Notes: a model not told the origin generated them from the sequence alone. Positions 1 to 24,337 are shown, numbered from the whole stretch's first letter. The stretch: 52,682 nucleotides of DNA, filler included, from Circinaria calcarea (GCA_051942165.1; 2 parts of 2 records of this genome joined end to end with filler, not necessarily neighbours in it); one strand, 5' to 3'. A program made the numbers and translations.

Positions 1-1269
1 CAAAGCCCCGCTGTACACACACTTCATCGAGTCCGTCGCCGGCGCACCTACCATTCGCGCCTTTGGTTGGCAGTCGCAATATCAGGAACGCAATTACAAG
101 TTTATCGATCAATCACAACGGCCAGCCTATCTACAGTATTGCATTCAGAGTTTGCTCGGTTTCGTGCTAGATATACTTATCACAGTCATTGCGGCTGTAT
201 TGGTAGCTATTGTGGTGACGTGGAAGGATAAGTTCAGCACCGGTAACGTTGGTGTCTCGCTAGTGATGGTCATGACATTCAGCTCTGTCCTCATGAGGAT
301 GATTAAGGCGTGGACGATGATGGAGTCCAGCATTGGCGCCGTAGCGCGCGTTAAGCGATTCGTCGCCGACACGGATTCGGAAGAGAAAAGCAGCTGCAAG
401 GTCGAGGTGGCGCAGGAATGGCCTACACAAGGCAACGTCGAGTTCAAAAACCTGGTCGCTGCTCACTCTCCCGGTGCGGAGCCGGTGATCAAGGGTATTT
501 CATTCTCCATTAGGCCATCCGAGCATGTCGCCCTGTGCGGACGCTCCGGTTGCGGTAAGACTGTGAGTATAAAACCCTTCTACTCATTCATTAAAAATTG
601 GAGAGCTAACATGATACACAGTCTACCATACTGGCACTACTTCAGATGATTGAGACGCGAGGAGGCCAGATCACCGTTGACGGTGTCGATGTTTCCACCA
701 TGCCGTGCACTGATGTTCGTTCCCACCTCAATGTGGTGCCTCAGGATCCACTCCTTATGCCCGGAACGATCCGTTTCAACATTGACCCTTTCGGAAAGGT
801 CTCGGACGAAGACATTATTCGGGCCCTAGAGCGCGTCCGGCTCTGGGCAATCATATCAGCGCAGGGCGGCTTAAGCAAAGAGATGGACACGGCTATGTGG
901 TCAGCGGGCCAGAATCAGCTGTTGTGTCTTGCACGAGCCATGGTCAGAAACAGCAAAGTACTAATACTTGACGAGGCCACTAGCAGGTAAGCTATAGAAA
1001 GCCATAGGCGTAAGTTGCAGAAACGCAGGGATTAACGTATGAATAGTGTCGATAGCGAGACAGAAGCAATCATGCAGAATATTATCGACACGACCTTTAA
1101 AAACTGCACTGTTTTTGCGGTTATGCACCGTCTCACATATATTACTCGGTATGACAAGGTTGCGTTACTCGACAACGGCCACTTAATAGAATTCGATACG
1201 CCGGAGACGTTACTGAGCCAAGAGTCAAGGTTTGCTAGATTATATCAAACAAGTGCTATGCAGCCGTAA
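1..1269 (+). CDS. ABCC/MRP-type ABC transporter, 3' portion (end of TMD2 plus NBD2); 5' end lies outside the window
   Basis: Introns 563-621 and 987-1046 (GT..AG) join Walker A GRSGCGKT|STILALL, the Q-loop VVPQDP, signature WSAGQNQLL, Walker B ILDEATS|SVD and H-loop VMHR; WPTQGNVEF linker typical of ABCC; stop at 1269. Confidence 0.93.
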
Positions 1270-1750
1270 AGACTTTATGGCTGACAATACTCCTTTCTTT
1301 GATATTCAACATATACTAAGTAGGGTTTATTTTCAGGATAAGAAACGACATTCAATTTATTTTGAAAGCGTTACAAAAAGGAGCCACCCTATTTTTTCAA
1401 CGTTCCTTTCAGGTGACGACATCCAACTTGGTTTAAAGCTTCGGGGATATCCCCTTTCAGGGTCCCACCCGCCATCAAAAGGGTATGCTGGCAACTTCTG
1501 CTCATAATCGACCATATCGTTATAAATATCATTCTTATATCCATCGCTCATAAAGAAAAATCCAGAGTCATTCTTTCTCTTTTTTCTTTTCTCCTCACCA
1601 TTGTTATTTCCTTCTGCACGTTCCCCGAGCCAGCATCTGAATCGATAATGCTTGACGTTTTGCGATTCTTTGACGGAGATTCACTTCGGGGGTCGGGCGA
1701 TGTATAATGATGACTTCCTTCGTTGTGGGGCAGTGGGGAATCGGGGTTTA

Positions 1751-1799
1751 GGCTAGCAATATCGTGTGAACGTGGCTAGCAATATCGTGTGAACGTGGC
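1751..1799. repeat. 23-bp direct tandem duplication (ggctagcaatatcgtgtgaacgt x2)
   Basis: Identical units at 1751-1773 and 1774-1796, followed by ggc. Confidence 0.9.
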
Positions 1800-2920
1800 G
1801 AATCACTTTTAGATGTGGCAGCCTGAATAGTGTCTGGGCAACTAGAATGGTAGAGATATTAATAAAGCTTCCGTGGTGAGCATCGATTTAGACTTCCTCA
1901 ACGTACCGGAACAACGGAGATGGTAGGGTGGCTGCTAATGTCGACGGCTGGGAGAAGAACTTGCCACAAGCCGAGCTGACGGGGGTCTGCTGGTCGCCGA
2001 AAATGTTAAAAGTCTGTGTCAGATCGATCTTGCTATCGGCAAAGCGTGCGAGAGAGCCAATGCGTTGATGTTTTTCTGGTATTGCCCCATGACCGTGGGA
2101 TGACGAGATGCGCCTTCACAAAGTCGTCGAGGAGATGATCATGGCATCAACAACTGTGCCGGGAGGACAGGAGCTGTTTTCAAGCAGCCTAAATAACTCC
2201 AAGGTACTATAGCAATGACCGCCATGCCACTATAACAGAGGGCATATCCTCGGGGAACTCGAGAGTCTCGGAAATGGTTGGTGCTGGGGGCGGCAAGGGG
2301 GACCAGGTATTATCGTCGGACTCAGCTTTCAGGCGGCTGTTGAGGGAACTGGTGTGTAGAGCCTGCATTAGAGCATTATTGTTAGTACTGTGGTTAGACA
2401 CGCGGTGGAGATGGATCGAGCATACCTTATAGTCAGGATCGGTGACGGAGGACGAAGATCATGATCAAAGTTGCGGATGTTGCTTCCCAGCCTCCCAGAA
2501 TTCCGAGCTGGGATACCTTGGCAGGATCTAGTGTCAATAACTTGATTAGTTTGTGTTCAACATTCAAGACGAGCTAATGCCGATTGTCAAAAGACTGTCA
2601 GTTGAAGGAGAACATAGTACATATGGAAATGTTTTTTCTGGAACTCTCGTATGGTCATGGTTATCTACCACCACAGGACTAAGTCCATCCTGGCTGGCAA
2701 GCTAAGAAATGCAAGCTTCAGCTACGGGAGCTGCCTGGAAGTCCTTGGTCGTCGCGGTGACTCCCCGGAGTGTCAGAAATTGTGGTTCAAGATGGTCGAG
2801 TCGTGGAGACGATGATCCTAGTGAAAGGCTCGACTTACTGGATGTCCGACGGCAAGAGTTCGAGATTGGTGGCGGTACAATTCTGGTTCTGGGCACTGCC
2901 CTGTCATTTTGATTTATCAT
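1760..2920 (-). pseudogene. possible decayed gene of unknown family
   Basis: Minus-strand frames give protein-like stretches (e.g. STLELFRLLENSS... and LFRYVEEV*IDAHHGSFINISTILVAQTLFRLPHLKVI) broken by isolated stops; no family recognised. Confidence 0.25.
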
Positions 2921-3032
2921 TTTGATTTACGAGGCAGTTTGAACTTTGGATTGCCATTCTACGTATGCACGTATATAACATACCACATCGCCTTCTAGTC
3001 TGAGTGTCTAAAACGACTCCTATGTCATCTAC

Positions 3033-4565
3033 CTAAGCTAATGCTGCTTGCATCGCATACACCTGAAGCGCCGCTTTCGGCAAGGCAGCGTTCGAAGAAC
3101 CGTCTTCAATTTCTAGCATCTCAGCGGCCCAACCGCAAATCGCCACAACTGCCGTGTCAACCTCCTGCTCCGTGTTATGTGCATGAAAGACCATCCGGAT
3201 GCGGCTGGAACCTTTCGGCACGACTGGGTAAGAAATGTTATATGCATTCATGCCCGCCATGGACATGTGGAAAAACAAATACTGCTCATGGCGTGGACGC
3301 GTGCGGATCGGCACGATGTGACTATAACATTGGCGTTGCTCCCAATCTTCAGCGAGAGGGCATGAAAGCAAGCCAGCATCCACGGCCTCCTCCCATACAG
3401 GATCATTGGTCAGTTTGTGGAAGAAATATTTAATAATGGTCTGAATGCGGTCTTGAGCCTGGTGACGGAGGAAGTGACTGTCAGCGTTGGAGAATAAATG
3501 TAGAGTATGATTTCAATTTACCTTCTTTGTCTCACCACTAGCTAACATAGCGTAGCCAACGCGGATCGATGCTACCATTAACGTGGACGGAGCTCCGGAA
3601 TAGGTGAGACAGCGTGATTGGTGCATAATGGCATGTCGAATCGTCTTGTTGCAGAGGATCACGCCTAGGATTCGCATCAGTAGCAATCGTTTTATAAAGA
3701 TGAGTATGGGACAACATAATGTACCTCCAGTAGATCCTAATGCCTTACTACACACGTGAACGCGAATGGCGATCTCTTTCTCCAGCCCCAACATCTGAAC
3801 TAAGCCGGCTCCGTTCGGGCCTAGAACTCCGCTACTGTGGGCCTCGTCCATGAGGAACTGGGCGTTACCGAGTGGGAAGAGTTCTTTAGTAACGTTGACG
3901 CATTCCTTGAGTGGGCATATGTCGCCGTCCATGCTATAGATGGACTCGACGCAAATTAGAATGGATTGAGTCCCAGAGCGGAATGCAGGATACCTGTCTT
4001 TCAAGGAAGTCAGAACGTCTCGCAAGGAGACAGGGTCGTTGTGGCGAAATGAGAGCTTATGTGCCGCTGTGCTAACTTTCATTCCGACATGTGTGCTCGC
4101 ATGCATATACTCATCATAGACAATGGCATCGCCTGGGAGTAACACGGCCTCAATGACGCCAGCGCAGGCGAAGAAGCCCGAGTGAGCAATCCAGGCTGTC
4201 TCAGCGTTATGGAATTTCGCTATATCCCGCTCCACCTCCAGAAGATAGTCATAATTCCCGAACTGCGCCCGTGAGCCCGAAGCGCTGAGCAAGTATTCTC
4301 CTTGACGCTCTAGTTCTTCCTTGACGCCTTCACGGATCCGGCCAGAACGGCTGAGACTGAGGAAGTCGCTAGACGTCAAGTCGATAACAGAATCATCCCA
4401 TCGAGGTTTAGCTGTCATGAGGCCAAATTCAACCCGGTATCTATCCAAGGCTTGCTCGATGTTGCGGTCGAAGGCTGGTGCATGCTTCATCGCCGAAGCT
4501 TGAAGTTTATGCTCCTCGAGCCAATTCTTGAGCATTCGCTCGGCGTACGTGTTGGAATTAGACAT
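3033..4565 (-). CDS. PLP-dependent alpha-oxoamine synthase (AONS/BioF-like, aminotransferase class I/II), ~469 aa
   Basis: Exons 4565-3725, 3664-3522, 3458-3033 (1410 nt). Motifs SSDFLSL, SGSR, DEYMHAS, FRHND, ESIYSMDGD, DEAHSSG, PLP lysine in HVCSKALG, C-terminal YPVVPKGSSRIR. Confidence 0.92.
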
Positions 4566-4981
4566 GGCTCAGAAAAAAAAAGGTCAATAAGTGGATAATT
4601 CTTCTTGAAAAAGATGGAGGAGTGCTATAAAGACGAATATACGAAATAAGAAATTAGAAAGAGCTTGTTACATTGGAATATCACTTCGTACGTTTTCCGG
4701 CTTTCCAAATACTTTAGGACTGACTCGGCCATCAACTTACAAATCGATGATGATTATCATGTGGGAGGTAAAATAACCTCCCCATATTATCCGACCTTTA
4801 GCGTAAGTTTTATGCATATAATCTTTCCTCCTCATGTCCACCGATATTATTAATAGGGATAAACTTGCCTTAGGATTCAGACGTGTTACTAGATGCATCT
4901 AACCCGTTTCAGGTTAGCTCTCAAAACTTTAGCTTATTGAACGATCTCTTGATTACACGTCTGAGGCAAGGATAAACATCC

Positions 4982-5004
4982 TCCTCGGAATCCATATCCG
5001 AGGA
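4982..5004. promoter_or_regulatory. inverted repeat TCCTCGGA-N7-TCCGAGGA (CGG-N9-CCG), candidate Zn2Cys6 factor site in the AOS/PKS divergent promoter
   Basis: Perfect 8-bp arms seen; two further CCGGATAC copies near 5030 and 5049. Function inferred only. Confidence 0.3.
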
Positions 5005-5283
5005 AGTGAGGCGATAAGCTTCGGATCGACCGGATACGCTCTTGTTAACCGGATACTACCTGCTGACTTAGTCCATTCGACCAGCTACTATGATCCTGCA
5101 CGGTACTAATTAGCGTTTTCACACCTCGGAAGATGGATGATCTAAAACTACCTCCAATGAAAAGAACGGCAGCCTACCTTGTGATAGGATTCGCCCTCCC
5201 CACCTCCACTTGAATCTCGATTATTAATTCCATCTTCTCATCACACCGCCTATCTGACACGGGCCTTACTTTTTAGGCCCCCA

Positions 5284-5328
5284 GCATTAACCACCCAACC
5301 GCATTAACCACCCAACCGCATCAACCAC
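5284..5328. repeat. 17-bp tandem repeat gcattaaccacccaacc x~2.6
   Basis: Units start at 5284, 5301 and 5318 (partial). Confidence 0.85.
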
Positions 5329-5525
5329 ATAATTAAAGGTACCACACAGAATTCTCGCCATGAGAAAGTTTCTCCGGCGGCCCACTAGTTCTTGCGCACG
5401 TACCACGATTTACAGTGGAGCCTCCAGCTCACACATACCGAACCGTGCGCGGTACAAGGGTTTCGGGCGTATCGTCGATCTGCTTAATAACTCCGCATCT
5501 TGTATCTCGTTAAGCGCCAATATGG

Positions 5526-6005
5526 AGTACAGACAGCTCGGGCTAGAATCCTTCATTGATGCACGTATAATACCTTAACAGATTGGGTCGACCCGTGGCA
5601 TGAGGTTTATAGCTTTCAATTGGCGCGGAGGTGTGATCCAGCTATTTAGAAGTTTTTCGATTAACTCTAGGGTCGACCCGATCTGTCAAGGTACTGTAAG
5701 GCCAGAGCCTACGGTTCGCGGTAATCATCTGTCCCACTTTTTTTATCACCCGCGTGTTAAGGAACTATACTAAATAAGGATAAGTATAAGGGTTTTACTT
5801 GATTTCTCAGCACCGTCTAAATACTTTCCCCGAGTCTTGCCACAACACCGCATGGAGAAAAAAATATTAATCTCGTGAAAAGAACTATCGGCTGTATTAT
5901 AAGTATATTTCTGTATTAAATATACTATTTCCTATCAAGAATAAAAGCGGCATTATATAGGGACCACAAATGCCACGAAGGATTCTAGCCCGAGCTATCT
6001 ATACT
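5526..6005 (+). mobile_element. MITE-like non-autonomous element, copy A (with ~190-bp internal insertion)
   Basis: Terminal inverted repeats 5526-5554 and 5977-6005 match at 27/29 (core ctcgggctagaatccttc); AT-rich non-coding interior homologous to the reverse complement of 15796-16104. Confidence 0.7.
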
Positions 6006-6206
6006 TTGTACATGGTGGGAATTACCGCCGGCGTCAGCACTGGATAAGCGTCAGCGTGAAATATATTTAGTATATTTAAATGCCTTCGATTTTTCGATAG
6101 ACGAACAGGAATTATTTAGCTTTAATTCCCTCCTCTATAAGCTTTTTAATAGATATATCTTCAACACTTTCTTGATCTAAACTTGAAACTATCTAAGTAT
6201 AGCAGG

Positions 6207-9200
6207 ATGAATGGTACAGATAGCATAGGTTATAGCGTGGGATGTGCTAGCAATAGACCCTCGGCAGAGGGGGTGTCTGCCAGTGCCAACTTCAATTATG
6301 GCCATACACTCAAAGCATCTACCAAGGCGACGAACGGCAAGGCCTTCACACCTATCGCTATCTGTGGGATGGCTTGTCGCCTTCCTGGGAATATCTCTTC
6401 CCCAAATGACCTGTGGAAGTTCCTTGGCGAAGGAGGAGATGCCCGCAGCGAAGTACCTCCAACCCGGTGGAGTGCTCCAGCTTACTATTCAGCCGTGAAG
6501 AAGCCGGGCACATCGAGAACAAAGCACGGCTACTTTCTTGATGAAAGCGTTGACCTGGGTGCCTTGGATACGGCGGCTTTCCCTATGCCACGCACTGAGC
6601 TTGAACGTTTGGACCCCCAGCAGCGACTATTACTCGAAGTTTCACATGAGTGTCTTGACGATTCCGGTGAGGTTGATTGGAAGGGAAGCGGTATTGGCGT
6701 TTACGTTGGGTGCTTTGGACAGGATTGGTATGATGTGCTTAATCGAGAGAATTTGAAATCCAACGCCTACCAGATTATGGGTTCGCACGATTTTATGGTC
6801 TCAGAACGCATCTCTCATGAGCTGGACTTGCGTGGTCCTTGGTACAGCTCCCTCCAATTGAACCTACGTACTACTCTCCGCTGACTCCTTGTTCACAGCT
6901 TGACCATACGCACCGCCTGCTCTTCCTCAATGATTGGTCTAAACGAGGCGTGCATGGCCATTGCAAAGGGAGATTGCAAAGCAGCAATCGTAGGCGGTAC
7001 TAGCCTTTTCTTATCGCCAAGCACTCTCATAAGTCTGTCTGACCACGGTGTTTTCAGCCCAGAGGGATCCTCCAACACATTCTCTTCCAAGGCCAATGGT
7101 TTTGCACGAGGTGAAGCCATCGTGGCTGTCTATGTTAAGAGCTTAGACGAAGCACTCCGCGACGGCAATCCAATCCGAGCTGTCATATCAGGAATAGCTA
7201 CTAACTTTGACGGCAAGACTCCAAACATGTCCATGCCGAGTGCGCCAGCCCAAGAAGCAGCGATCAGGCGGGCGTACGAGGTTGCGGGCATCAACATCTC
7301 AGAAGTCTGGAAGACCGGATTGTTTGAGTGTCACGGCACTGGTACTGCTGCCGGGGATCCAATCGAGACCCGCGCTATTGCTGCTGTTTTTGGGGACCAC
7401 GGTATACACCTCTCGTCGATTAAACCGAATATGGGCCATTCAGAAGGAGCGGCCGGGATAAGTGCTGTTTTGAAAGCAGTTCTCGCATTGGAACATCGCA
7501 CAATTCCGCCAAGCATCAAAGCGTGGCCACTCAATCCTAAGATTCCTTTCGAAGGCGCCAAACTCGCACTGGCAACGGAATGTATTCCTTGGCCAGCTGG
7601 ACGTCACGAGCGTGTTAGCGTCAATTCATTTGGAATTGGAGGTGCCAATGCCCATACCATCATAGACTCAGCTAGCAGCTACGGTATCTCTCTCACCCCG
7701 GGCCATGATGATGCACATGAAGTAGCATCAGACTTTCCGAGCTTGTTCGTATATTCTGCATACTCGAGCAAGTCTTTGGAACGCATGTCACACAACATCG
7801 AAAGATTCCTTGACGCAACCTCTGAGTCGTTTAACGACGTTGCGCATACCCTTGCCCGCCGGAGGCAGCATCTGCTACACCGATCTTTCGTTGTTTCTGC
7901 CAAAGAGAAGCCCGGGGAAGCTCCACCAGCCCTGACTCAAGAGGTCGGTCTTTCCCATACCGTGGTGATGGTTTTCACAGGCCAAGGCGCGCAATGGCCC
8001 CAGATGGGCAGGGACCTGATCCGCTCCAACCGTGTATTTTCCAAGGTCATTGAGGCCATAGATATGGAGCTCCAGCGTCTTGGAGCCAAATGGACTATCC
8101 AGGAAGAACTCCGCAAGACATCCAGATCAACCAGAGTAAATGAGGCCGAGTTCTCTCAGCCCTTGTGCACAGCGATCCAGATCGGGCTCGTTGAGGCGTT
8201 CGCTTCCGTTGGTATCAAGCCAGCTGCTGTCGTGGGTCACTCCAGTGGTGAGTTTGCGGCTGCCTATGCTGCCGGTGCTCTCACATTGAGCGAAGCTATC
8301 GCTGTTGCATACCATAGAGGGGTTATCTCCAAGACACAGACGAGGCGCGGAGCAATGGCTGCTGTGGGTTTAAGCTGGGCCGAAGCAGATAATTATCTGC
8401 TTCCTGGTGTTGTGGTCGCGTGTGACAACTCTCACAACAGCATAACTTTGTCTGGTGACGCGGATCAGCTCGAGTGTGTCGTGGCTAACATCAAAAAGGC
8501 GCGCCCGGAGATTCCCACAACTACTTTGAAAGTGGAGCGAGCTTATCATTCGCATCATATGGTGGAACTTGGTGAGGCATATCGCCGGGCCATGATTGCC
8601 TCAGGCGTCGTGGGCGCCCGGCATTCCATCCCGTTCTTTTCCAGCGTGACCGGAAAACATCTGTTAAATAAGACTAAGCAAGCACAGCTTGGTCCGAAAT
8701 ACTGGCAGGAGAATTTAGAATCCCCGGTACGCTTTAAGTCAGCCGTTGTCGAAATCCTGAAACAAAGCGACATTCCAAGCCCGGTCTTTCTGGAAGTCGG
8801 ACCCCATGCAGCTCTCGCGGATCCTATCAGACAGATCCTGATCAATGAGTTGCGCAAGGCGCCTCATGTACCGACTCTCACAAGGCGGAAGAATGGTACC
8901 GAGAGTCTTCTAACGGCGATTGGGAAGCTTTGGACTCTTCATATTGATGTGGACTTCGCAGCTCTTATGCCGGAAGGACGGACATTATCTGGTCTTCCTT
9001 GCTATCCTTGGGATCATCAGAAAAGTCACTGGTATGAGCCAAGAGTGTCTCGAGAATGGAGACTAGGTGGACATCCTTACCACGATCTGCTGGGGAGAAA
9101 GCTGCCTGAAAGCACAGATTTGGAACCCATCTGGAGAAATCTTATCCACCTCCAAAATGTGCCCTGGATTTTGGACCACTGTATCGATGGCGATATTGTC

Positions 9201-12200
9201 TTCCCGTTTGCAGCATATGTGGCCATAGCTGCTGAGGCAGTTCGGCAGGTCAGTGAGGCTCAGGAGACTGTCGATATGCGGAATGTGGTCGTCAGCAATG
9301 CACTACCAATCAGTGAAGAGTCACCAACAGAACTCGTGACCAGCTTCCGGCGCAACCGCCTGACCGACTCTTTAGAGAGCGATTGGTGGGATTTCACCAT
9401 ATCATCCCATAATGGTCATATCTGGACAAGACATTGTACAGGTCAAGTGCGCCCGGGCTCTGATAGTTTATCGATTGGAGCTTCTTCACCTTCGGCCCCA
9501 AGTACCTCTACGCTCCCGAGGAAGGTGGATAGCCGGAGTTGGTACGAGGCAGTCCACCGAAAGCGGCTCAGCTACGGTCCTCATTTCACGTGTTTGGAAG
9601 ACATAACCTCATCGGCAGTCACACCGAGTAAGGCTTCGGCTAAGTTGCGCAACAATTGGCATGGCGATGAGGCCAACTATTATCTACACCCTGTTGTTGT
9701 CGATGCCTTCTTCCAGCTCCTGAGTCTTGCAGCGCATAATGGTCTTGGCCATGCATATCGTCGGCAAGTTCCGACTAGTATTGATCACCTGACCATTTCC
9801 CGGTGCCAGTCAGAAGAACTCCAGCTATACTTGGAAGGTGGGGTAAATCATGACGGCGGAGCTTCTGGACAGGGACAATGTACAGCTGGCTCAAGGATCG
9901 TCTCGCAATTCTCGGGGGTTCGAATGGCTCTTTTTGAGGGTGCCGAATCTACAGCGAAGAATGATTTCCCACTGACAGCTCGAGCTGAATGGGTGTCACA
10001 CGTCGGTTTCAGGGATATCAGCACACTCTTCCAGCCTGTTGATGCCAACGTTAGTGGCATCAAGATCTTGGAAGATCTCACTCATTCGGCCATCCGGTTC
10101 TCGCAGCAAGTGTTATTCCTCAGTGCTAAACCAGAATCTCCTCATCTGCAGAAATATGGAGCTTGGTTAAAGGAGCAACGGGTTACTTCTTCCGAACGCA
10201 TGCATCATGACAGTACCGAGCTGGCCGAGTCGATTCAATCAATCACCCAAAGCCTCGAATCCACTCCTCTCTCATATGCAGCCAAAGCCATTGCGGGCGT
10301 CTGTTCCAATGTCGACTCGATCCTATCTGGTAAGCGAGACGCTTACGACGTCTTAGCCACCGACGGCGTTCTTGAGAAGCTCCTCGAATTCATGTCCGAG
10401 TATGACGGGTCCAAGTTCTTCCGCGACCTTGGGCATTTCAAGCCCAACCTACGTGTTCTTGAGCTCGGTGCTGGCTCTGGTGCGGCGACGACCAAGATTT
10501 TACAATGCCTGCGACATGACAAGGGCCAGAACCTCTTTTCGAGGTACGTGCTCGCCGATGCGTCGACAGGTCTTATTAATGTAGCAAAAGATCGGTTCAA
10601 GGGTTTCACGAATCTGGAGTTTACTTGCCTCAACATTGAAAGAGACCTGGTCGACCAAGATTTTGGCGACGAGGAATTCGATCTCGTCATTTCAGCTGGA
10701 TTCTTGCACACGACGATCAACGTGGCGAGGAGTCTGTCCAATATTAGGAAACTCTTAAGCCCGAACGGAAGATTGCTCGTACAGGAGCCAGCACCAGGAC
10801 AAATCTGGACCAAATTTATTCTCGGCACATTGCCTTCTTGGTGGTCTGGTCATGATGACAGTCGTCCAGATGAACCGTTTATGAGTCGAGAAAGGTGGAC
10901 AGAAAAGCTCGACTCAGCTGGGTTCAGCCGACCTAATTTCGTTGAAAACCTCGGTCAAAATACAGTTATCGTTGCACAACCAGAGTATCAACAATTCCTA
11001 TCCAGAAAAGTAACCTTACTATGCGAACAAAAATCTACCGAGACAGAGAACGTCTGTCATGAGCTCCAAGCGCGAGGATATGACATTAACCGTTGTACAC
11101 TAAACGAAAGCCCCATCATCGGACAGGATATCATCGCACTCATCGACCTAGATAAGCCATTTCTATGGGATGTCACAGCAGCGCGCCTCAAATCCTTCCA
11201 AAACTTCGTCAAAAACCTACAGGGGTCTGGCGTTCTATGGGTCACGCGGCTATGTCAGGCTGGTGTCAAAGACCCCAGGTACGCGCCCATTATTGGGCTT
11301 TCTCGCACAATGAGGTCGGAGCTCGCAGCCAGCTTCGCCACATGCGAGACAGACGAGCTGACCTCGACGGCAAGCGTCAATGCTCTGGCCAAGGTATTTT
11401 GTAATTTTCAGGATCGGAGACACGATGGAGTTCTCGGCCCGGAATTTGAGTACTCAATTTCGAACGGGGCCGTTTTAGTTAATCGATTCTTCCCCTTCGA
11501 GTTGGCAACTGAGATACAAGATATGGAGTCAACCCAACTTCCAGAAGCATCACTGGCAATTGGCAAGAAGGGTCAACTGGGCACCCTGCAATGGTCTGCT
11601 CGAAAACCTACAATCCCGCAAGGAGACGAGATCGAAGTCGAAGTGCATGTGATAGGTCTCAACTTTAGGGTCAGTACTCCGAATATTACCATAGGTGTAA
11701 TACTAACTAACCTCACTTCAGGATATCTTGGTCGCCATGGGGATTCTAACGCTCCCCGAAACACATTTCGGCTACGAAGCAGCGGGCGTTGTCCGAAAAA
11801 TTGGACCGAAAGCGACCAAGTTCTGCGTGGGTGACCGGGTTGTGATCATGGGGCACAACACCTTCGCGACCACTGTGACGCAATCGGAATTGCTTTGCGA
11901 AAGACTTCCATACTCTATTGATCTTCTTGACGGCGCCGGCTCTCCTCTTTGCTTCACAACGGCGATTTATGGACTTGCGGACATCGGGCGGCTTGAAGAG
12001 GGACAGGTGAGTGACTACCTCTTATGCAACATCCATCAGTATAGACGAAAAGAAATATTCTAACCATCAAACGTCTGGCAGTCCGTGCTCATCCATAGCG
12101 CCGCTGGTGGTGTCGGCATAGCTGCCATTCAGGTTGCCAAGATGCTCAAGGCGAACATCTATGTGACTGTAGGTAGTCCCGAGAAAAAAAAGTACTTGAT

Positions 12201-13940
12201 CGACACCTTCGGAATACCAAACGACAATATTTTCGACTCGCGTAGCGCCGCCTTCGCAGCTGATGTGATGCGCGAAACTGGAGGTAAGGGGGTTGATGTG
12301 GCTCTCAACTCGCTCTCCGGTGAGTTGCTGCATCAAACGTGGAGTTGCATCGCCAAATGGGGTACGATGGTTGAGATTGGCAAGCGAGATTTGTTGGGAT
12401 CTGCCAAGTTGGATATGAAACTATTTGCCGACAACCGCAATTATTGTTGTATTGATATGGACCAAATGACCAGAGAGAAGCCCAAGGCCATTGACAGGTG
12501 AGACTCTTTGTCTATTGTTCGGCGTTCCATTATGATTTTCTGACTATCAGCAGATTGCTGCGAAGGATGATGGAGTATTTCCGCCATGGCTATTTGCAAC
12601 CCATCCCGCTGGCTCAAGTGTCGCCTGCATTTGAAATGCCAGAATCATTCAGACTCATGCAGCAGAGCAAGCATATTGGGAAGATGGTCGTGGAGCTACG
12701 GAACAGCCAAGGAAAGCTTCTGATCAGTGACATACAAGCGTCACAGAAGCGTCCGGTTACGCTCGATGATTCTGCAGCATACCTCTTGGTTGGGGGACTG
12801 GGGGGCCTCGGGCGTTCAATTGCACGCTACATGGTTCAGCAAGGTGCTCGGAATCTCATCTTCCTATCTCGAAGCGCTGATAAGAATGATCAGCGGTACC
12901 GAGATTTCATCAAGGAGATTGAGGGCATGGGAAGTACTGTCCAGTGTGTCCGGGGAAGCGTGGCACAGCAAGCGGACGTCGAGCGAGCTATAGATGAGGC
13001 GCTAGCCCCGGTAAGGGGCATCCTCAATATGACAATAGCGCTGGCTGACGAAGCCTTCTTGCGAATGACGATCGAGGATTGGAACACATCGGTCGAGCCC
13101 AAGGTCAAAGGCACCTGGAACATTCTAGAGATCATCAAGTCGCGTGGGCTTGACCTTGACTTCCTCGTCCTCATCAGCTCCTTATCGGGCATTGTTGGTC
13201 AGACAGGCCAAGCCAACTACTCCAGTGCAAACACTTTTCTTGACGCATTCTCGCAGTACAGTACAATCCAAGGATTGCCATGCACAACCATCACGTTCGG
13301 TGTCATGGAGGGTATCGGCGTCATGAGCAACAACGTTGAGCTCTTGAAGAAGTTGCAAGGCTCAGGTTGGCGCTTGAACAATGAATCAGAACTAATTGAA
13401 GCCGTAGATTCGGCGATACAGCTCCAGACCACCAAGCGGGCTATCAACATGAAGCAGGCACTCGCCTCGAGTTCCATTAACGCGGTCGACAAGACCAGGT
13501 TCATTTTTGGGCTATGTCCAACCGTGCCGCTCAGCAGCCCCGACAGCTATACAAACCTACGGGCCGATGTCCGCATGGCGGTATATCACAATTCCAAACG
13601 GCAGAGTAACAAGTCGGCTGTGTCAGAGGACGCTTTGCGCACGCTTCTAAGCACAGCAAAGAAAGATGCATCAATCCTTGAGTCCAGCGAGAGCGTGTCA
13701 CTTCTCGCCATGGATATTGGGAAGAAGCTTTGCAGCTTGCTGCTACTACCCGACAATAACCTGAGCCCTACAATGAAGACAGGCGAGATGGGGCTGGATT
13801 CCATGGTGGCGGTCGAGATGGGTGCTTGGTGGAAGCTTACTTTTGGTCTCGAGATGAGTATGTTGGAGATGGTGAGCATGGGGACTTTGGAAGCATTGGG
13901 GAAGCGGGCAGCAGAGGACCTCATCCGCCTTTACACTTGA
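6207..13940 (+). CDS. highly reducing iterative type I polyketide synthase (KS-AT-DH-cMT-ER-KR-ACP), ~2497 aa, no TE/R domain
   Basis: Introns 6842-6898, 11670-11721, 12007-12081, 12498-12553 (or 12550). KS TACSSS/HGTGT/GHSEG; AT GHSSG and AYHSHHM; DH HCIDGDIVFP; cMT LELGAGSG and FLHTT; ER GLNFR|D and LIHSAAGGVG; KR GGLGGLG and YSSAN; ACP GLDSMVAVE; stop shortly after the ACP. Confidence 0.96.
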
Positions 13941-13963
13941 CCAACCAATTAGTGGGGCTGTTC

Positions 13964-14270
13964 CTATAACACGATTAAATTTACTTCCACTTTGTTCTGA
14001 GAAGAGATTTCCAGCCTGTTTTAACAAGAGATTTCCAATCTCTTCTAACAAGAAGCCATAGCGAAGTTCAAATTCTGAATGTTTATTTATTCATATAACA
14101 TGGTTGAATGAATTAATTACTTATTAATTTCCAATCTGTTCTAATAAGAAGCCATAGCGAGGATCAAATTCTAAATCTCTGGTTTGCTTGTATAACACGG
14201 TTGAATTGATTATCTATTGATTTCCAATCTGTTCTAAAAAGCCATAGCAAAGATCAAGTTCTGAATCTTT
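13964..14270. repeat. degenerate ~93-96-bp tandem repeat (~3 copies plus a partial) that includes the last codons of the methyltransferase gene
   Basis: Unit atttccaatct..ttctaa..aagccatagc..a..tcaa.ttct.aat..tataacacggttgaat starts at 14031, 14127 and 14220; the third copy overlaps the MT stop and C-terminal codons. Confidence 0.85.
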
Positions 14271-15379
14271 GTCTCAGGTCGGAGTCCATCATTCCAGCCG
14301 ACGTGGCCGAAGCCGACGGAGCTTAGTACCTTTTCCCAGGATTGCGGGCTCTGCAGGGCGTGTTGTCGCCCGTCTTCAAACGCCCACCACCCCGAAATCA
14401 ACCCAAAGGCGACATCGGCCCAAAGCATTTGCGCCGTCAGCTCATGGAATATCGTGAAACCATCCGGTCGTAGCATCTTGCGGATGATTGCCAATGAAAC
14501 GGACAGATCGCGAGTCGCATGAAGAACATTTGACCCGAGGACGATATGTTGGGTGTTTTGCAGCGTCGCATCCGGTTCCTTTTCGATATCCACGACCTTG
14601 TATTCCACAAAGGGGTATTCTTCAAGCTTCTTTTGCGCTGCCGAGACGAAGACAGAGCTGATATCGCTCATGGTATATACCACCGGTATGCCGAGACGAG
14701 CCAGTACTGGGACTATCTTGAAGGTCGTGCCTCCGGTACCTGCCCCGACTTCTAGTACTCGGAGGGGCCCGGCATCTTTTGGCCATGTGCTGCCAATCTT
14801 CTCAATGAAAGCCGCTAGCTGTTGGAGGATTGTGCTGAATAAGGGGGACTTGGCATAGAAATTTGTCATGAGCGTGCGACCTTCGTCGGAGCCGAACAGC
14901 AATTGCAATGGATCCGCCTTGCCAGATAGGCATTTGGCAAAAGATCCGCCTGTTCTTTGCATAAGCCCGAGTTCCCACTCTTGTGCAGGCCTGTCGTCAA
15001 GGAGGTTTTCCAGAATGTCCTCAATTTCGCTGCTAGGACAAGCGACGGATGTGCGAGTGATTTCCTCGCCGTTGGTCTCGATCAAGCCAGCCTTTTTCTC
15101 CAAAGCTTTATACATGTAGTCAATGAGCTTTTCGTGTCTTGGAAGATGTCTAATGCGCTCGAGCTTTGTACCAGGTGCTGCAGATCGAATCGGACACCCG
15201 AGTTCTTCAAAGGCATTGCAAAAGACTGCGATCGCTAGCTCGTCCGATCTCGGGATAAACTCCGAACAGTAGGTGTCTATCTTGTTCTTCACGATGAAAT
15301 CGTCAGTAGCTTCCCGCATGCTGCGGAATGCATCCAAGACAGTAGCCGAGCTGAGCGAGCCGTCCTTATTCGAAAGCAT
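14234..15379 (-). CDS. free-standing SAM-dependent C-methyltransferase resembling an NR-PKS CMeT domain, ~381 aa from the first in-frame ATG (open frame extends to 15460)
   Basis: Intronless ORF with LRVLEVGAGTGGTT, YTMSDIS, VDIEKEP, HIVLGSNVLHAT and GWWAFEDGRQHAL, plus the N-terminal helical subdomain (LDAF..TDDFI..AFEELGC..HLPRHEKL) typical of CMeT domains of citrinin/azaphilone-type NR-PKSs. Start codon uncertain. Confidence 0.8.
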   Translation of the reverse strand: MLSNKDGSLSSATVLDAFRSMREATDDFIVKNKIDTYCSEFIPRSDELAIAVFCNAFEELGCPIRSAAPGTKLERIRHLPRHEKLIDYMYKALEKKAGLIETNGEEITRTSVACPSSEIEDILENLLDDRPAQEWELGLMQRTGGSFAKCLSGKADPLQLLFGSDEGRTLMTNFYAKSPLFSTILQQLAAFIEKIGSTWPKDAGPLRVLEVGAGTGGTTFKIVPVLARLGIPVVYTMSDISSVFVSAAQKKLEEYPFVEYKVVDIEKEPDATLQNTQHIVLGSNVLHATRDLSVSLAIIRKMLRPDGFTIFHELTAQMLWADVAFGLISGWWAFEDGRQHALQSPQSWEKVLSSVGFGHVGWNDGLRPETKIQNLIFAMAF

Positions 15380-15795
15380 TTTGAAGTCGATATTCGGAGC
15401 TGCGACGCCGTTTGCTATAACTCTGTTGTTGCTGCTGTGGTGGGATATACTGTTAACCAATTATGTATTTTTCTTTGGCTCTTCTTGTTCGTCTTCGACT
15501 GCTGTAACGAGAATATAAGGTCTTAGGACTGAGTTTAGAAGATTTTACCATAGTCTCTTTATCAAAATTGACTAAATTTTTAATGGATCGTACAGGTATT
15601 CAGGGTGACTGCTGACGCGAGCACGGTAATAGAGAAGAGACTCGACTGGACAGTGCCCCCTCACCGGACGATAGTCCCAGAACAGGACGGAAGGCGGCTG
15701 ATCCTTAGAAATTCACCAATGGCTTTCCACTGATAACATGCTGGCGGGGAGTCGGGAATGGCTTTGCGAATGCCGCCACGTCAACCTCGTTAGTG

Positions 15796-16104
15796 CATAC
15801 AGAGTACAGATGACACGGCTGGAATCCTTCGTGGCATTCATAGCCCTTGTACAGCGCCGCTTTATTATTAATAAAATATAATATATTTAACAACAGAAAT
15901 GAAATTTTAGTACAGCTAATAATTATTGCTCAAGCGTATTATTTTTAAGAAACTATTATTATTTTCTTTATGCGGTGTTGTGGCAAAGACTCGGGAAAAG
16001 TATTAAAACGCTATTGAGAAATTAGGTAGATTCCCTTGCCTTTAACCCTGTATAATATGTGCATTAATGAAGGATTCTAGCCCATGTTGTCTGTATTTTG
16101 TATG
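15796..16104 (-). mobile_element. MITE-like non-autonomous element, copy B (inverted relative to copy A)
   Basis: Imperfect TIRs 15796-15830 and 16069-16104; reverse complement shares blocks such as cccgagtc(t)ttgccacaacaccgcat and aatgccacgaaggatt with 5820-6005. Confidence 0.7.
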
Positions 16105-16734
16105 TTGTCAGAACGGATGCTTATGCTAAGCACGGCGTAATATAGCGATCAACGCCCATTATCCCCTAGTTAGACTGTGCCGCAGGCTTGTAAGGTAGCT
16201 CTGATCAGTCTGACCGGAGGGACTTCAATATAGTGGTGGTAGTTACAAGGCAGGATAGTGGAGTAGTCATAATGGTGTTGACGGCATTAGCCTTGACGTG
16301 TGATATAAAGGCAGAGCCTGCATGAACTTGGCGCTAGCGGGTGAGAGCGGAAAGCTCGGCGCGCTAGAAAGATCTTCTCCCCAGTATTACCCCATTAATA
16401 TGCAGCTACAGAGGGGTGATAATGAAAACGCGCATTGCGCTTTACAGCGTATAAGCGGGGGGTATATATCACCATAATTAAGTTCAAATTTTAATAGCGC
16501 TTGCCTCTTGATGGCCTGGTGGTACCCCGTCCTATTTTTTCTGACTCTCCCCTTAGGCCTAATCCGTGACATAAATAATAAGATAAAAGTAACGGTTTGG
16601 GAGCTCCGGGTGATTCGACCTTCTTATAAAGACTGTTGCTAGGAACGGAGAGTATGAAATTTTACCTCGGTTTTTATACGTTCGCCCCTACCTCTAGGAC
16701 CCCGGCATATTCTGAGACTGATAAAAATCTTAAG

Positions 16735-17665
16735 ATGACTTCGTCAAGTACTGCTAAGCTGTTTCGCGTCGATGGACTGGTGGCCTTAATAACAGGCGGT
16801 GGCACTGGTGGGTCTTGAACTGTCAATGTCGATTTGTAAGTACCTACTAATACGATTAGGCATTGGACTTATGATGACAAAGGCCCTTGCTCGCAATGGG
16901 GCCAGTAAAGTTTACATCAGTGGCAGGCGAAAAGAGGTCTTGGAAGAAGCTACGAAGCAATCGCTACATGATAACATCATTCCTCTTGTCGCCGATGTAA
17001 GCTCGAAGGAAGACATCGAAGCACTTGCAAAGCACATACGAAATGATGTCGGCCACCTGAATCTTCTCATTGCCAATGCTGGAATTTGGGGTCCTGGACC
17101 CGGGCAACCTCTTGGCACAACGCTGCAAGAGGTTCAAGCGGAAGCAATGAAGACGACAATGGACGAGTGGGATAAGTGTTTCCGAACCAATGTTCATGGC
17201 TGCTATTACTCTATCATGGCCGTCCTCGATCTCCTCGACGAAGGCAACATAAGGAAGAATTATTGCAATGGCGAGGTGAAAAGCCAGGTCATCGTCACCG
17301 GCAGCGTAGGCGGTTATTCCCGGATTGTCGGCGGGCGCAACGCCTATCGCGCCAGCAAAGCTGCAGTAACGCACCTTGCCAAGTGCCTCTCCACAGGCTT
17401 TCAAGAGTTTGGCATCCGAGTGAACACGCTCGCACCAGGCCTTTTCTCATCCGATCTGGCAGCACCCCTGATTAAGAGATATAACGAGTCTGCCGGCGAG
17501 GACGGTAAGCTGGACAGGAAGCGTGTGCCGGAGGAGCGAATTGGCGCGGAGGAAGACATCATCGGAACGTTGCTATATCTTGCTTCGAGAGCTGGGGCTT
17601 ACAATAATGGTAATGTTTGCGTCCTAGACGGGGGCCTTGTCAGCGTTATGCCGGCGTCTTACTAG
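16735..17665 (+). CDS. short-chain dehydrogenase/reductase (classical SDR), ~292 aa
   Basis: Intron 16808-16859 restores TGGGTGIG; LIANAG, catalytic YRASK, IRVNTLAPG, VLDGG. Confidence 0.93.
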
Positions 17666-18817
17666 ATCCAACACCTCATTTGGAAGTGTTACGGGTCAGT
17701 ATTATAGATTTAAGAGAGCTTGATTTAGACCTATTGGGTACGTCCCTCGGGCTGTTTAGGGACACATCGTACGATTCTGAGAATTTGCGAGAATGTTGAT
17801 CGCTATTCAGCTCAACGCCAAACCAGATCCTAAGTTCCGATTGTGATGCTTGCAAAATCTACTTTAATAAAAACACTGAATAGCTCTCATGCAAGTTGGA
17901 AGCTCTTCCGTGCCGTTATGAATGAATCTATATTTGTTCTGAGCCCCTTGAGTCTTGACATTCTCTAAGAGTTACTAGCAAATATCAGCATACGCGCTAT
18001 CAATCGATTTCCGTACAAACGGCACAAGGTTACACTCAAACCTCTATGGTGTAGGTCTTGTGCATGTAACGTTACTCTTTCGCCCCACCTCCTCAAAGAA
18101 CACATATAAAAACTCTCGCCATACCCTTAAGAACCGGAATGTTCCTGCATTTGCAATGCGCGCAGCGCATACAACTTCCATTTTTCAGTCCGAGGTGGCT
18201 GTAACACCGGCGGCTGCATCCCAATCCTTCGTACTATGGTAATACGTAGATCTATGCAGTCAGCACACCGCTTGTTAGTTGCTGTGTCGGGCCTCGGATC
18301 TCCATGTCATTACCTATTGTAGCATGTCCGTGCATAGAGTTTGAATCTACTCGAATCAGCAAAGAGGTGCATAATGTATGCTTTCTCACCATTTAGGAGT
18401 GAGCACTATGGCGGCACGCCATACCCTGTGCTACCAAGGCTGGGGACGGAGGGACTAGGAGCCGCTTACTCCCGGGGCTCCCAGGGCTTGGCAGCAGGAG
18501 CAACAGGGTATGTTCCCAGTGCTCCCACTGGGGATCAGTGGGAGCCACGGGAGCAACACTACTATATAGACAGGCTATTCCTGCTCTTTAGAATAGCATG
18601 CTTATAGCCATACACGGAACAAAAATAGACCAATATTACGTTCCTAGTAATCGTGCACACCGGAGTGACTCTATCCCTTATACGAGTCTAGCAATATCCT
18701 AGCACTCTTACACCCATAGAGGCTCTTCTTCCCTCCATCCTTGCCATTCTCTTCTTTCTCTTGCCTCTTGTCTCTCTCTTACCTCCTCGTCTATCGACTC
18801 TTACTTGGCTAGATGCA

Positions 18818-20756
18818 ATGGATTTATCCGGGTTATCCTCATTCCCGGATGTGGAGCTGCTTCCCACTTTTCTCGACCGAGTCGCATCCGAGGATCCATC
18901 AAAAGTTTGGATCTCCTGCCCGAAAGATGTTAACGACATGTCCAAGGGCTTCCGAGACTACACGGCTCGCGAACTGGCGAATTACGTGAACAATGCAGCA
19001 TGGTATGCTAGCATTTTCTATGGCTTCTTACCGACACCGTTCCTTTCTAATATGCTAGGTTCCTTGACGAGCACCTGGGCAAGGTTCGAGAAGGCAAGCT
19101 GCCGGTGGTTGCATATATTGGACCATCCGATATACGTTACCTCCTTCTACCAATTGCCTTGGCCAAGTGTGGCTACGAGGTCAGTTGTCCTGTACGCATT
19201 TGAAAGCCGCTGCAAAACAGCTAAACCCGCCACAGTCACTTCCTCTTTCTGATCTTGTCTCGGCCCAGGTGCGCGTATATCTCACCGAGGAGGCAGGATG
19301 TGATATCTTAGTTTGCGCTCAAGGGTTCGGGGGCGACGAGGTCTTGTCTCGAAAGACGATGCGACGCGTCATTTTCCCGGAGCTAGATGAACTGGCTGAG
19401 CCGCCAAATGCAAAGCATTACCGGTATGAAAAAATCCCCGAAGAAGGTCTTAACGACCCGTTCTTCATATTGCACACATCTGGCTCGTCAAGTGCAAAAG
19501 GCTTCCCGACGGTCAGGTTCGGAGATCCTAGAATGAGACTAGATTCTAACACTTTGTATAGATGGTGCGCTATCCTCAAGGCGCGGCTGCACTCAATGGC
19601 CTCCTCCGGCATATTCCTGATTATGACGGTCTACCCAACTTGTATAGTGTCACGAGCCGATCATCTAGAACCTATACTGGGTTTCGTATTACTCATGCTG
19701 GAGGATTCTTTTTCGCTATCCGCCAGATTTACCAAGGCGTAACCATTGTCGTCGGGGGGGATGATCAAGCTTCGATAAAGTCTATCGAGGCAGCAATCGA
19801 TCACGGGCGTATTGACAGTGCCGCCTTAGTGCCAAATAGTCTGAAAGAAATCAGTGGATCCCCCAGAATGCTCGAGAAGCTATCGAAGCTGAAATGGGTT
19901 ATATCTTCAGGAGGTAAGCTGATATCCGAGCTCTTAAGAGTTACTCAAATTCTCTCTCCACTTACTAATTATCATTCCAGCGATGCTGCCCAAGCAAGTT
20001 GGCGATATAATTTCAAAGAAGGTCCACCTTATCAGTATCTATGGTTCGACAGAGGCCATCAGCACCACGCACAACATACTCCCCACTGAAGACTGGGAGT
20101 ATATCCACTCCAATCCAAACATTGGTAACCTCCAATTTGAGGAAAGCGGGGACAACCTTTTCGAAGCCGTATACATCAAACACCCCGACCCGGCCCTCCG
20201 CCTTCATCAAGGTGTATTCTGGTGCCTTCCCCATCTAGATAGATGGTCAATGGGCGATCTCTTCTCCCCGCACCCTACCAGGAAGAACACCTGGAAATAT
20301 GTCAGCCGAGCCGACGAACTCATCATCATGGCCAACGGTTACAAGCTCCTCCCAACGTTCTTTGAAGAAGAAATCCTCGGAAAAGACCCCCGCATCAAGA
20401 GCGCCAGTATCTACGGAACCGCCAAAGAGCATCTGGCCGTCATCGTCGATCTTGTCAACCCTCCACCGCCTTCTTACTTTGAGAACAAAGATAAGGTGAT
20501 GAAAAGCACAACAACATCATCAACAACGACAGATGCTCCTGATCCCGATCCCATCGTTGACGAAATCTGGCCCGTAATCCAAACTGTTAACGACCCGTTA
20601 ACGAAGTTCTCCACTAAGACCAGTCAGATCCTCAAGCGTGCCGTTATTATGGCGGATCCGAAACGGCCACCTCCGAGGACAGGAAAGGGTGGGGTACAGA
20701 AAAAGTTGACTGAGAAACTGTATCAGGAGGAACTGGATTGGGCCTTTAGAACTTGA
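18818..20756 (+). CDS. free-standing adenylate-forming (ANL) enzyme of the fungal NRPS-like/carboxylic-acid-reductase A-domain type, ~569 aa, no T or R domain
   Basis: Introns 19003-19058, 19180-19235, 19512-19561, 19914-19980 (1710 nt CDS). VAYIGPSDIRY, A3-like HTSGSS, YGSTE, GDLFSPHP, SRADELI, NGYK, A10-like RTGKGGV; stop about 18 codons later. Confidence 0.9.
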
Positions 20757-22949: not shown

Positions 22950-23904
22950 ATGCACCTTATGCGGTTTGCCTTACCTTTGGTCGTCGGCTTGAGTGGGGTG
23001 TTATCGTACCAGGATACCTACCAACATCAGCTGTAAGCTTCCTAAAGGTTCCATATAAACTGACAGTGACCCATGCCATAGTCGAGATCTAGAAGAGCGC
23101 AGTGTTAATAGCTATCTTGACGCCCGATATGCCTACGACTCCCGCGTAGACCCTCGAGATTACGGCAGGGTTGACACGAGAGAAGCAGATCCCGAACCTC
23201 TCGCAGATTATGACTAGCTTATCCACCTCATAGCCCGAGGCCTCTTACCCCCTCGTGCTGCGCCCAAATCGCCTTCCAAACCTGCTCCTAAATCGCCCTC
23301 CAAACCCGCCCCCAAATCACCAGCCTCGCCCAAAGCACCTTCTTCTGGCAGTCACAAACTCGACGGCAGCCCTGCTGTACAAAAGGCAGTTCAAAGCTGC
23401 TCCCGTGGTCGCAGCTCTCATAAACGCGCTGATGACTTTCATTACGACATGGAAAAAATGGGCGCCACAGGGTGGCATGATAACAAAATGCTCACGACGA
23501 AAGGGCTCTGCGGGTGCTTCGTTGCCGCCATAGTCGCCCCCACTGGTGCCATGGCAGCCCATATCCCGCATGGCAAAATGGTGCAGCAAAATGGACAAAG
23601 GGTACAGACAGTGACCGCGGATCAGCAAGCGACCCTGCAAATGCGCGAGCTGATGACTTACTATAACACACACAAGGCCTTGGTACCGCATGCCAAGGCG
23701 GTTCTGGTACAGATGAATGGTGCGTCAAACAGCGCCACGGCTATTATCAAGAATGCTTTAGAGGGGGCGGGCCTATCGGTAACCCCATATGTCTATGCTA
23801 ACGTCGAGTATGGGAAAGGGGTATTTACAATTGATGGGTCAAATACCCAGGACAGGTATTACCCGACCATGCGGCTTGATGTGCATGATGTGCCTCTTCG
23901 TTAG
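22950..23904 (+). pseudogene. secreted pre-pro-protein with putative CNF1/CheD-like cysteine deamidase domain; one in-frame TAG at 23215-23217 (~301 aa if read through)
   Basis: Signal-peptide-like MHLMRFALPLVVGLSGVLS; canonical intron 23033-23081 (gtaagc..ctgac..catag); pro-region LEER/LDAR/READPEP/LIAR; (APKSPSKP) repeats; KR site (HKR|ADD); C-terminal domain with TTKGLCGCFVAAIVAPTGAMAAHIP. The whole model is one frame apart from the single stop. Confidence 0.7.
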
Positions 23905-24337
23905 GTAGGGGCTTCGGTGTCTGCGTTCCGTTTGCCATATCTGTCTTTGTGCTTGGAGATGGGATCTTGGAACTTGCTCTGTGTTTTCCTGCTTTTTGTT
24001 GCTTCCAATACGTTAAGTCGGACCGCGAGTTTGTATAATAGCAAGTTTTGTTATTTGGCCATAGAAATTGAATTACCGCAGCTCTAGCGAATTGTTTTCA
24101 ATCTCCATGACAAAGAACTCTCTAGACGAATCGCCCCTGACAAGACTTGGCTTTCTTATGGTCAGCTGTGAATCTGCTGGTTCCTCAGCCTTTCCCTCTA
24201 TACAATTCGGTACCTGTATAACGTAGCAACCTTCCACTAGTTTTACGTCTCCAAGTTGCCAGCACGACGCATTCAAGTGTATTATTCGTGGTTGTATATG
24301 GTGAGCAAAAACAATTCTGCCGAGAAGGTATGTGAAT

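Follow-up and report, generated by a model that had tools for sequence, protein, structure and literature searches.

The first 20,756 nucleotides of a 52,682-nucleotide stretch of DNA from the lichen fungus Circinaria calcarea (GCA_051942165.1; the whole stretch is called the window here) carry a real, intact and conserved gene cluster of the kind that pairs a highly reducing polyketide synthase (HR-PKS) with an alpha-oxoamine synthase (AOS), related to the SAM4 clusters of Fusarium. Pfam recognizes six genes: the 3' part of an ABCC exporter gene, the AOS, the HR-PKS, a free-standing C-methyltransferase (MT), a short-chain dehydrogenase/reductase (SDR) and a lone adenylation (A) enzyme. We estimate a probability of roughly 55% that these genes together make an undescribed methyl-branched amino-lipid, by the route set out below. 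What is new is the coexistence of an apparently decayed in-cis MT domain with an intact, seemingly excised free MT, an A enzyme without T or R domain, and an AOS that has Cys for an otherwise near-invariant Asn. Because AOS-type release and trans methylation both have precedents, this is a new combination and not a new kind of system.

2..1269, plus strand: ABCC/MRP-type exporter, 3' part (end of TMD2 and NBD2); exons 2-562, 622-986 and 1047-1269; Pfam ABC_membrane and ABC_tran
3033..4565, minus strand: AOS, 469 aa; exons 4565-3725, 3664-3522 and 3458-3033; PF00155
6207..13940, plus strand: HR-PKS, 2497 aa; exons 6207-6841, 6899-11669, 11722-12006, 12082-12497 and 12554-13940; Pfam
14234..15379, minus strand: free C-methyltransferase, 381 aa; PF18558 and PF08242; PDB 5mpt
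16735..17665, plus strand: classical SDR, 292 aa; exons 16735-16807 and 16860-17665; Pfam; PDB 9k8q
18818..20756, plus strand: stand-alone adenylation (ANL) enzyme, 569 aa; exons 18818-19002, 19059-19179, 19236-19511, 19562-19913 and 19981-20756; PF23562

Positions 1-26319 of the window are one whole contig (C80), and the remainder comes from other contigs. The spliced models of all six genes are free of internal stops, every intron has GT..AG borders, and the PKS model and an NCBI protein of 2497 aa (P0241) are identical in every letter. The AOS gene is transcribed divergently from the HR-PKS gene, and the locus unites the three elements that mark sphinganine-analogue-type clusters: an HR-PKS without a release domain, a class II aminotransferase/AOS and an SDR. 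A preliminary description of this DNA had listed an HR-PKS ending at its ACP, a divergent AONS-like enzyme, an SDR, a free C-MT and a free A domain, and had read them as a secondary-metabolite cluster with AOS-type chain release; all are found in place by Pfam and the spliced models, and the reading is supported. The ABCC exporter that it also named is present only as the 3' part, the last 382 codons, because the contig starts there.

Two methylation domains, one seemingly decayed and one free

The HR-PKS has the domain order KS-AT-DH-MT-ER-KR-ACP and ends at its ACP with no release domain (Pfam), and the usual KS, AT, DH, ER, KR and ACP motifs are seen in its translation. The domains noted earlier are confirmed, and an MT domain of the PKS's own, with a degenerate look, is added to them. 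Four residues, a Tyr, an Asn, a His and a Glu, reportedly carry catalytic weight in CMeT domains, as judged from work on PksCT. The in-cis MT has L1374 in place of the Tyr and G1479 in place of the Asn, and retains H1482 and E1508; across the 10 PKSs of its clade, the Tyr and the Asn are each present in 0/10, the His in 6/10 and the Glu in 9/10. We consider it quite probable that this domain is inactive.

Residues 9-380 of the free MT match the CMeT domain of the citrinin PKS (PksCT; PDB 5mpt, E 9e-130), in agreement with the non-reducing-PKS type first proposed for it. The protein combines this stand-alone CMeT fold with an intact S-adenosylmethionine-binding motif (GAGTGG) and with Y175, N284, H287 and E313, and the Tyr, Asn, His and Glu are all present in the 10 of 10 free MTs aligned. 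Its stand-alone homologues (378-440 aa) are a small family; the four that lie on the contig of a clade PKS fall into one 24-row subtree of 66 rows (SH-aLRT 91, quick tree). The free MT is distant from PDB 7dmb (E 6e-25), which we take to be CalH, and from PsoF-MT. Judged by its sequence, we regard it as an excised CMeT domain of the non-reducing (citrinin-PKS) type that belongs to the cluster.

The converging 3' ends of the PKS and MT genes hold a 50-nt unit three times (13985-14266, spacing 90-96 nt), with fewer copies in relatives.

The alpha-oxoamine synthase

The best PDB matches of the AOS are SphA entries (9dos, E 4e-78; 9pep, 2e-76), with the next match at 3e-26. It keeps the catalytic lysine (K274), H155, S157, D240 and R416, and has C134 at the site of SphA N135 and S66 in place of the Asn of the SphA SND motif. 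The accessible text of PMC13351049, which names PDB 9DRI as SphA, places N135 within the hydrogen-bond network of pyridoxal phosphate (PLP). Over 120 AOS matches, this column holds N 109 times, C 9 times and V twice, and all the C/V sequences belong to one clade (12 of 82 tree rows, support 1.0). The residue equivalent to ALAS position 83 is Ser, which predicts alanine as the substrate according to the available part of Kim et al. (PMC7376913). We give this rule less weight because SphA also has Ser there yet uses aminomalonate. The substrate would be a small amino acid, probably not aminomalonate, and alanine is a tentative choice at slightly less than even odds.

That the AOS is the housekeeping BioF, lying beside a PKS by chance, was raised in the preliminary description as one threat to its reading, and is extremely improbable. 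The AOS does score against the bioF model, far under the cut-off (163 and 209 bits; cut-off 426), and homologues are named '8-amino-7-oxononanoate synthase' in databases, but SphA leads the solved relatives by 50 orders of magnitude, homologues adjoin PKSs by locus tag in many fungi, and a profile search of the whole fragmented assembly found nothing for bioD and, for bioB, just a marginal match (E 8e-4). We therefore classify the AOS, from these relationships, as SphA-related and not BioF.

The assembly has no dethiobiotin synthase, convincing biotin synthase or separate BioF match, a hint of biotin auxotrophy or of assembly gaps. The remaining AOS-family matches in the genome resemble ALAS, two SPT subunits and a second PKS-linked AOS (contig C266). 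The latter is part of a second HR-PKS and AOS pair, beside an MFS transporter and a membrane protein; its AOS retains the SphA-type Asn residues, and its PKS groups with SAM1-like PKSs of Hypoxylon.

The reductase and the adenylating enzyme

Both the TGxxxGxG and YxxxK motifs of the SDR are intact. Its closest solved relative is Spm14 (PDB 9k8q, E 4e-66; next match 3e-20), for which we found no function in the literature searched. By its sequence relationships the SDR is not of the KDSR type, and for this reason its reduction of a 3-keto-amine, as first proposed, is a step we infer: the SDR is there, and the expected kinship is not.

Fungal carboxylic acid reductases of A-T-R architecture have an A domain to which the A enzyme is related; it is ~30% identical to the A domains of proteins of that size (~1050 aa), and PF00501 is found on its homologue P0362. 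It keeps motifs A4, A5, A7, A8 and A10 and is without T or R domain. The five best full-model matches (36-86%) all end no more than 4 residues from the end of the A domain; among the 146 matches that reach the domain end, 38 are stand-alone, some of them gene fragments, and in Atlas a close homologue falls in with AMP-binding proteins of ascomycetes that likewise stand alone. Such adenylation domains activate carboxylic acids. Since the enzyme lacks a carrier or reductase of its own, transfer of the activated acid to an amine, to CoA or to the PKS ACP is likely.

Conservation and transcription in relatives

Four of 24 listed public runs (X1, X2, X7 and X8) were aligned to positions 900-20899 of the window; X7 and X8 have identical flanking ends and count as one lineage, so that the four runs represent two. 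All six coding regions are covered in all four runs, with nucleotide identities in X1 of about 92% (ABC), 95% (AOS), 96% (PKS), 95% (MT), 96% (SDR) and 97% (A), and in X7 of 92-95% in five genes. A single X7 contig (record 12) runs through PKS, MT and SDR, and a single X1 contig (record 1) bridges ABC and AOS. Introns of the ABC, AOS, PKS, SDR and A genes are missing from the X2/X8 contigs: the ABC intron at 987-1046, both AOS introns and the SDR intron are spliced out in X2 and X8, and the four introns of the A gene in X2 or X8. X2 also has a splice-like joint directly upstream of the MT start. Because these contigs lack introns, we conclude that the relatives transcribe the cluster genes.

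Outside these lineages, Trichoderma viride carries the AOS (ACHAQJ_005925; 88%, full model), MT (ACHAQJ_005926; 84%) and PKS (ACHAQJ_005929; 81%) at nearby locus tags. In Flavoplaca, the AOS (Q9198_001029) adjoins the PKS (Q9198_001030); the AOS, MT and PKS of Neopestalotiopsis all lie on contigs of equal size (457,461), as do one further PKS and MT (18,051). As two lineages cover all six genes and T. viride holds AOS, MT and PKS close together, the six genes are one conserved cluster, grouped beyond chance. A metagenome scan found no long locus of this clade, the best matches being L009 (66%) and L025 (99% over 101 residues, on a 1.2-kb contig).

The free MT is 96% identical to a protein of Zopfia rhizophila, and the AOS is 93% identical to that of Elaphomyces granulatus but only 86% to that of the fellow lichen fungus Flavoplaca; in the trees, T. 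viride nests with Flavoplaca. With the fungal classes partly as we presume them to be, these higher identities to Zopfia and Elaphomyces and the placement of T. viride point to a spread of the cluster by horizontal transfer.

Compared with all four runs, positions 900-20899 of the window have A or T for G or C about twice as often as the reverse (for X1, A>G 179 and T>C 219 vs G>A 99 and C>T 84), a lineage-specific drift that has so far produced no stop codons.

Comparison with known systems

The accessible text of PMC7376913 gives Fusarium SAM4 as a divergent PKS/aminotransferase pair with genes for a nonribosomal peptide synthetase (NRPS)-like protein (~1025 aa), an ATP-grasp enzyme, an SDR (882 bp), an MRP transporter and a bZIP protein. 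Common to SAM4 and the present cluster are the divergent pair, an SDR (293 aa in SAM4), an MRP-type ABC transporter and an adenylating enzyme, the SDR and ABC proteins being likened by size and class. The adenylating enzyme is an NRPS-like protein of ~1020 aa there and a 569-aa lone A domain here; ATP-grasp, 2-oxoglutarate (2OG) oxygenase and bZIP genes are absent from C80. The present PKS is only 47-50% identical to SAM4 members, its AOS has Cys for Asn, and a free C-MT is added, whereas the eight supplements of PMC7376913, in the parts available, hold no C-MT and only two O-MTs, in a SAM3-like cluster. One of those supplements, as far as accessible, describes a SAM4-like pair of only two genes in E. 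granulatus, a 2494-aa PKS and a 469-aa aminotransferase. The 93% identity between an E. granulatus AOS and the present one makes this pair the probable orthologue of our PKS and AOS.

A PKS tree of 122 rows (FastTree, midpoint root) puts the HR-PKS within a 10-member clade (support 1.0). This clade and four other rows are sister to (support 0.991), and not nested inside, a 36-row group that includes Helicocarpus AJ79_09216, Torrubiella VHEMI04162 and Fusarium sarcochroum FSARC_10906. The first two are SAM4-like according to the available text of Kim et al. 2020 (PMC7376913), and FSARC_10906 lies five loci from a listed SAM4 gene. The AOS likewise forms its own clade (support 1.0), sister to a group with SAM4-like genes (0.958) and not nested in it (FastTree).

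In the sphingofungin (SphA/SphB/SphF) and myriocin (MyrA/MyrB/MyrF) systems, an HR-PKS without a thioesterase (TE) is likewise released by a SphA-family AOS, and MyrB, too, has an inactivated MT domain (PMC13612406, accessible part). MyrA-type enzymes are >60% identical to SphA in the same partial source, and the present AOS is roughly half identical to SphA by alignment. The differences are that N135 and the SND Asn of SphA are missing from our AOS, that the reductase there is KDSR-like and the SDR here is not, and that a free MT and a lone A domain are present here instead of P450, dioxygenase and MFS genes. The C266 pair of this genome falls on the sphingofungin/myriocin side of the PKS tree.

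Calbistrin biosynthesis likewise joins an HR-PKS (CalA) with a stand-alone C-MT (CalH), which reprograms CalA in trans (PMC8902786, available text), but has no AOS, and the MT here appears to derive from a non-reducing PKS domain. The fumonisin (FUM) cluster shares an HR-PKS, AOS, SDR, acyl-CoA synthetases and an ABC transporter, and differs by a condensation-domain protein and several oxygenases; methylation in FUM occurs in cis. Fum8 is <20% identical to MyrA/SphA-type enzymes (PMC13612406, in part). The curvulamine (cua) system, likened by description, also has a PKS and a PLP enzyme that condenses with alanine, but has an FAD monooxygenase and makes polyene-derived indolizidines, and its accessible descriptions mention neither a free MT nor an A domain. 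A CuaD-like monooxygenase is absent from C80.

No characterised cluster with an AOS, a free C-MT and a lone A domain was found in the literature searched, which covered few subscription chemistry journals, and to that extent the absence of a described pathway, as first claimed, holds. Most of the set is, however, the published SAM4 set, and FUM has acyl-CoA synthetases and an ABC transporter, so that the unusual features come down to three: the free MT, the missing T-R domains and the AOS change. Clusters of the SAM4 type, found in 33 Fusarium species and in other genera, have no known product; a search of the SAM4 and sphinganine literature since 2020 gave no product report and surfaced only PMC7376913. 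The present variant is a handy entry to them, being compact, transcribed in relatives and present in a culturable host, T. viride.

A proposed route to a methyl-branched amino-lipid

AOS enzymes such as Fum8, SphA and CuaB release the chains of TE-less HR-PKSs, and beta-ketoacyl thioesters are the substrates of PKS-type CMeT domains, which methylate their alpha carbon. In the proposed route, the HR-PKS would build a reduced acyl chain, to which the free MT would add methyl branches. Methylation in trans is likely because the in-cis MT is without two conserved residues, and the chain bound to the ACP has a good chance of being the free MT's substrate. Condensing the chain with an amino acid, the AOS would release it as an alpha-amino ketone, which the SDR would reduce, reduction of the 3-ketone being slightly favored. 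The A enzyme would form an amide or lactam; that it adenylates a carboxylic acid which the new amine captures as an N-acyl amide or lactam has about an even chance. The ABCC pump would export the product, likely an amino ketone or amino alcohol that has methyl branches and is N-acylated or lactamised. Were it to resemble a sphingolipid, it would be of interest in pharmacology. The route also raises questions in enzymology: trans methylation by an excised non-reducing PKS domain, amide formation by a carrier-free A domain of the carboxylic acid reductase type, and AOS chemistry after loss of the PLP-network Asn.

Several points weigh against this route. Cluster genes may extend upstream, where the start of C80 cuts within the ABCC gene. 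The in-cis MT still has a glycine-rich cofactor-binding motif, the His and the Glu, and may for this reason retain activity. The full four-residue set is missing in 92 of 110 other PKSs of the family (kept in 18/110), and since no free MT is known for these decayed relatives, decay alone calls for no partner; as such decay is common in the wider family, loss in cis first and recruitment of the free MT later is the likelier history. A label test on the MT tree finds the labels unclustered: they need 4 changes, and each of 500 shuffles needed no more. An MT contig of equal size exists for only 3 of the 9 other clade PKSs and for 6 there is none, including two PKSs on 44-kb and 118-kb contigs, a weak point as only one contig per cluster was considered. 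No contig listed for the four runs bridges the SDR and A genes. No KDSR chain is among the 49 PDB matches of the SDR (E<=1e-12), though a KDSR structure exists (8JAT). The P-loop of the A enzyme is altered by a 3-residue insertion and a Thr at the usual Lys, both common to P0362, and a PDB sequence search with the enzyme gave no matches.

Alternative readings

The unusual genes could also serve one PKS that makes two chains, as in calbistrin. With the free MT present, a methylated chain would leave as a free acid and be activated by the A enzyme; with the MT absent, a chain for the AOS would result, and the A enzyme would couple the acid to the AOS-made amine, yielding a ceramide-like di-polyketide amide. 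CalA does make two chains, one with the trans MT CalH (PMC8902786, available text), and the cluster has an acid-activating enzyme but no second acid source on the contig. C80, however, has no hydrolase or thioesterase gene to free the acid, which could equally stem from primary metabolism or an amino acid side chain, and we regard this alternative as unlikely. Equally unlikely is its fullest form, in which an excised non-reducing PKS MT would switch the HR-PKS between two chains, an AOS with a PLP network rewired from Asn to Cys would aminate one of them, and a carrier-free A domain would join both without NRPS, ATP-grasp enzyme or acyltransferase, in a cassette moving horizontally among four ascomycete classes, lichen fungi included.

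No better placed is a curvulamine-like alkaloid, in which a partly unreduced chain would be turned by the Asn-to-Cys AOS, possibly with O2-dependent hydroxylation as in CuaB, into a reactive amino ketone, which would close to a pyrrolinone or pyrrole ring, and the free MT would act after release, on a nucleophilic carbon. CuaB uses alanine for the condensation and O2 for hydroxylation (PMC7497351 and PMC13113314, accessible parts), Cys or Val replaces the PLP-network Asn in 11 of 120 AOS matches, all in this clade, and the SDR is not a KDSR. Yet the ER, KR and DH motifs look intact, which favors a saturated chain, and the contig has no FAD monooxygenase like CuaD.

Somewhat less probable still, the MT, SDR and A genes would be passengers or remnants of another cluster, with a non-reducing PKS and a carboxylic acid reductase, that travelled along with a simple PKS/AOS pair, and the product would be a plain, unbranched sphinganine analogue. 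The MT and the A enzyme both derive from parts of such clusters, free MTs of the family also occur outside the clade (36 of 66 rows in another subtree), and the high identities may reflect recent transfer alone. However, rearrangement in T. viride has not parted the MT from AOS and PKS, and two deeper clade members also keep it there, at ~60% identity; reading frames and catalytic residues are intact, relatives hold spliced transcripts, and the 293-aa SDR and the ABCC transporter are standing members of SAM4.

Inserted elements and other loci

Two insertions resembling miniature inverted-repeat transposable elements (MITEs) lie between the cluster genes:

5526..6005, no strand assigned: MITE-like insertion with 29-nt terminal inverted repeats (inverted-repeat search)
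15798..16095, no strand assigned: second, inverted and partial copy, between MT and SDR

The first sits in the divergent AOS/PKS promoter region, a passenger and not an enzyme gene, and holds a nested smaller inverted-repeat element (~5566-5698). Related sequence occurs on 31 other contigs of this genome, and contigs of X1, X2 and X7 join across the second copy. Since both insertions belong to this family and the relatives' contigs join across the second, the data suggest that the cluster resides in this genome.

Two contigs were rejected as carriers of the ABCC 5' part: C459 has an ABCB gene amid housekeeping genes, and C1805 a complete different gene. The genome's one ATP-grasp_4 match is on C37, not on C80, and the ATP-grasp and ABC locus there was ruled out as a missing part of the cluster, having no PKS, AOS, SDR or A match. 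It is a separate candidate cluster (C37, 7503-23900) with a 680-aa ATP-grasp frame, an ABCC gene and an FAD oxidase-like gene; PLP enzymes are represented by a sulfhydrylase-like one and one further match.

On the 3' side of the cluster, positions 23218-26319 hold a 228-aa frame to which Pfam assigns nothing, a gene with ankyrin repeats and a DUF6601 gene that the contig end truncates. Another contig in the window carries an HR-PKS with a C-terminal carnitine acyltransferase domain (37288-46692, minus strand); next to it lie a membrane-protein gene, an MFS gene and, at 52141, the start of an NRPS-like A domain.

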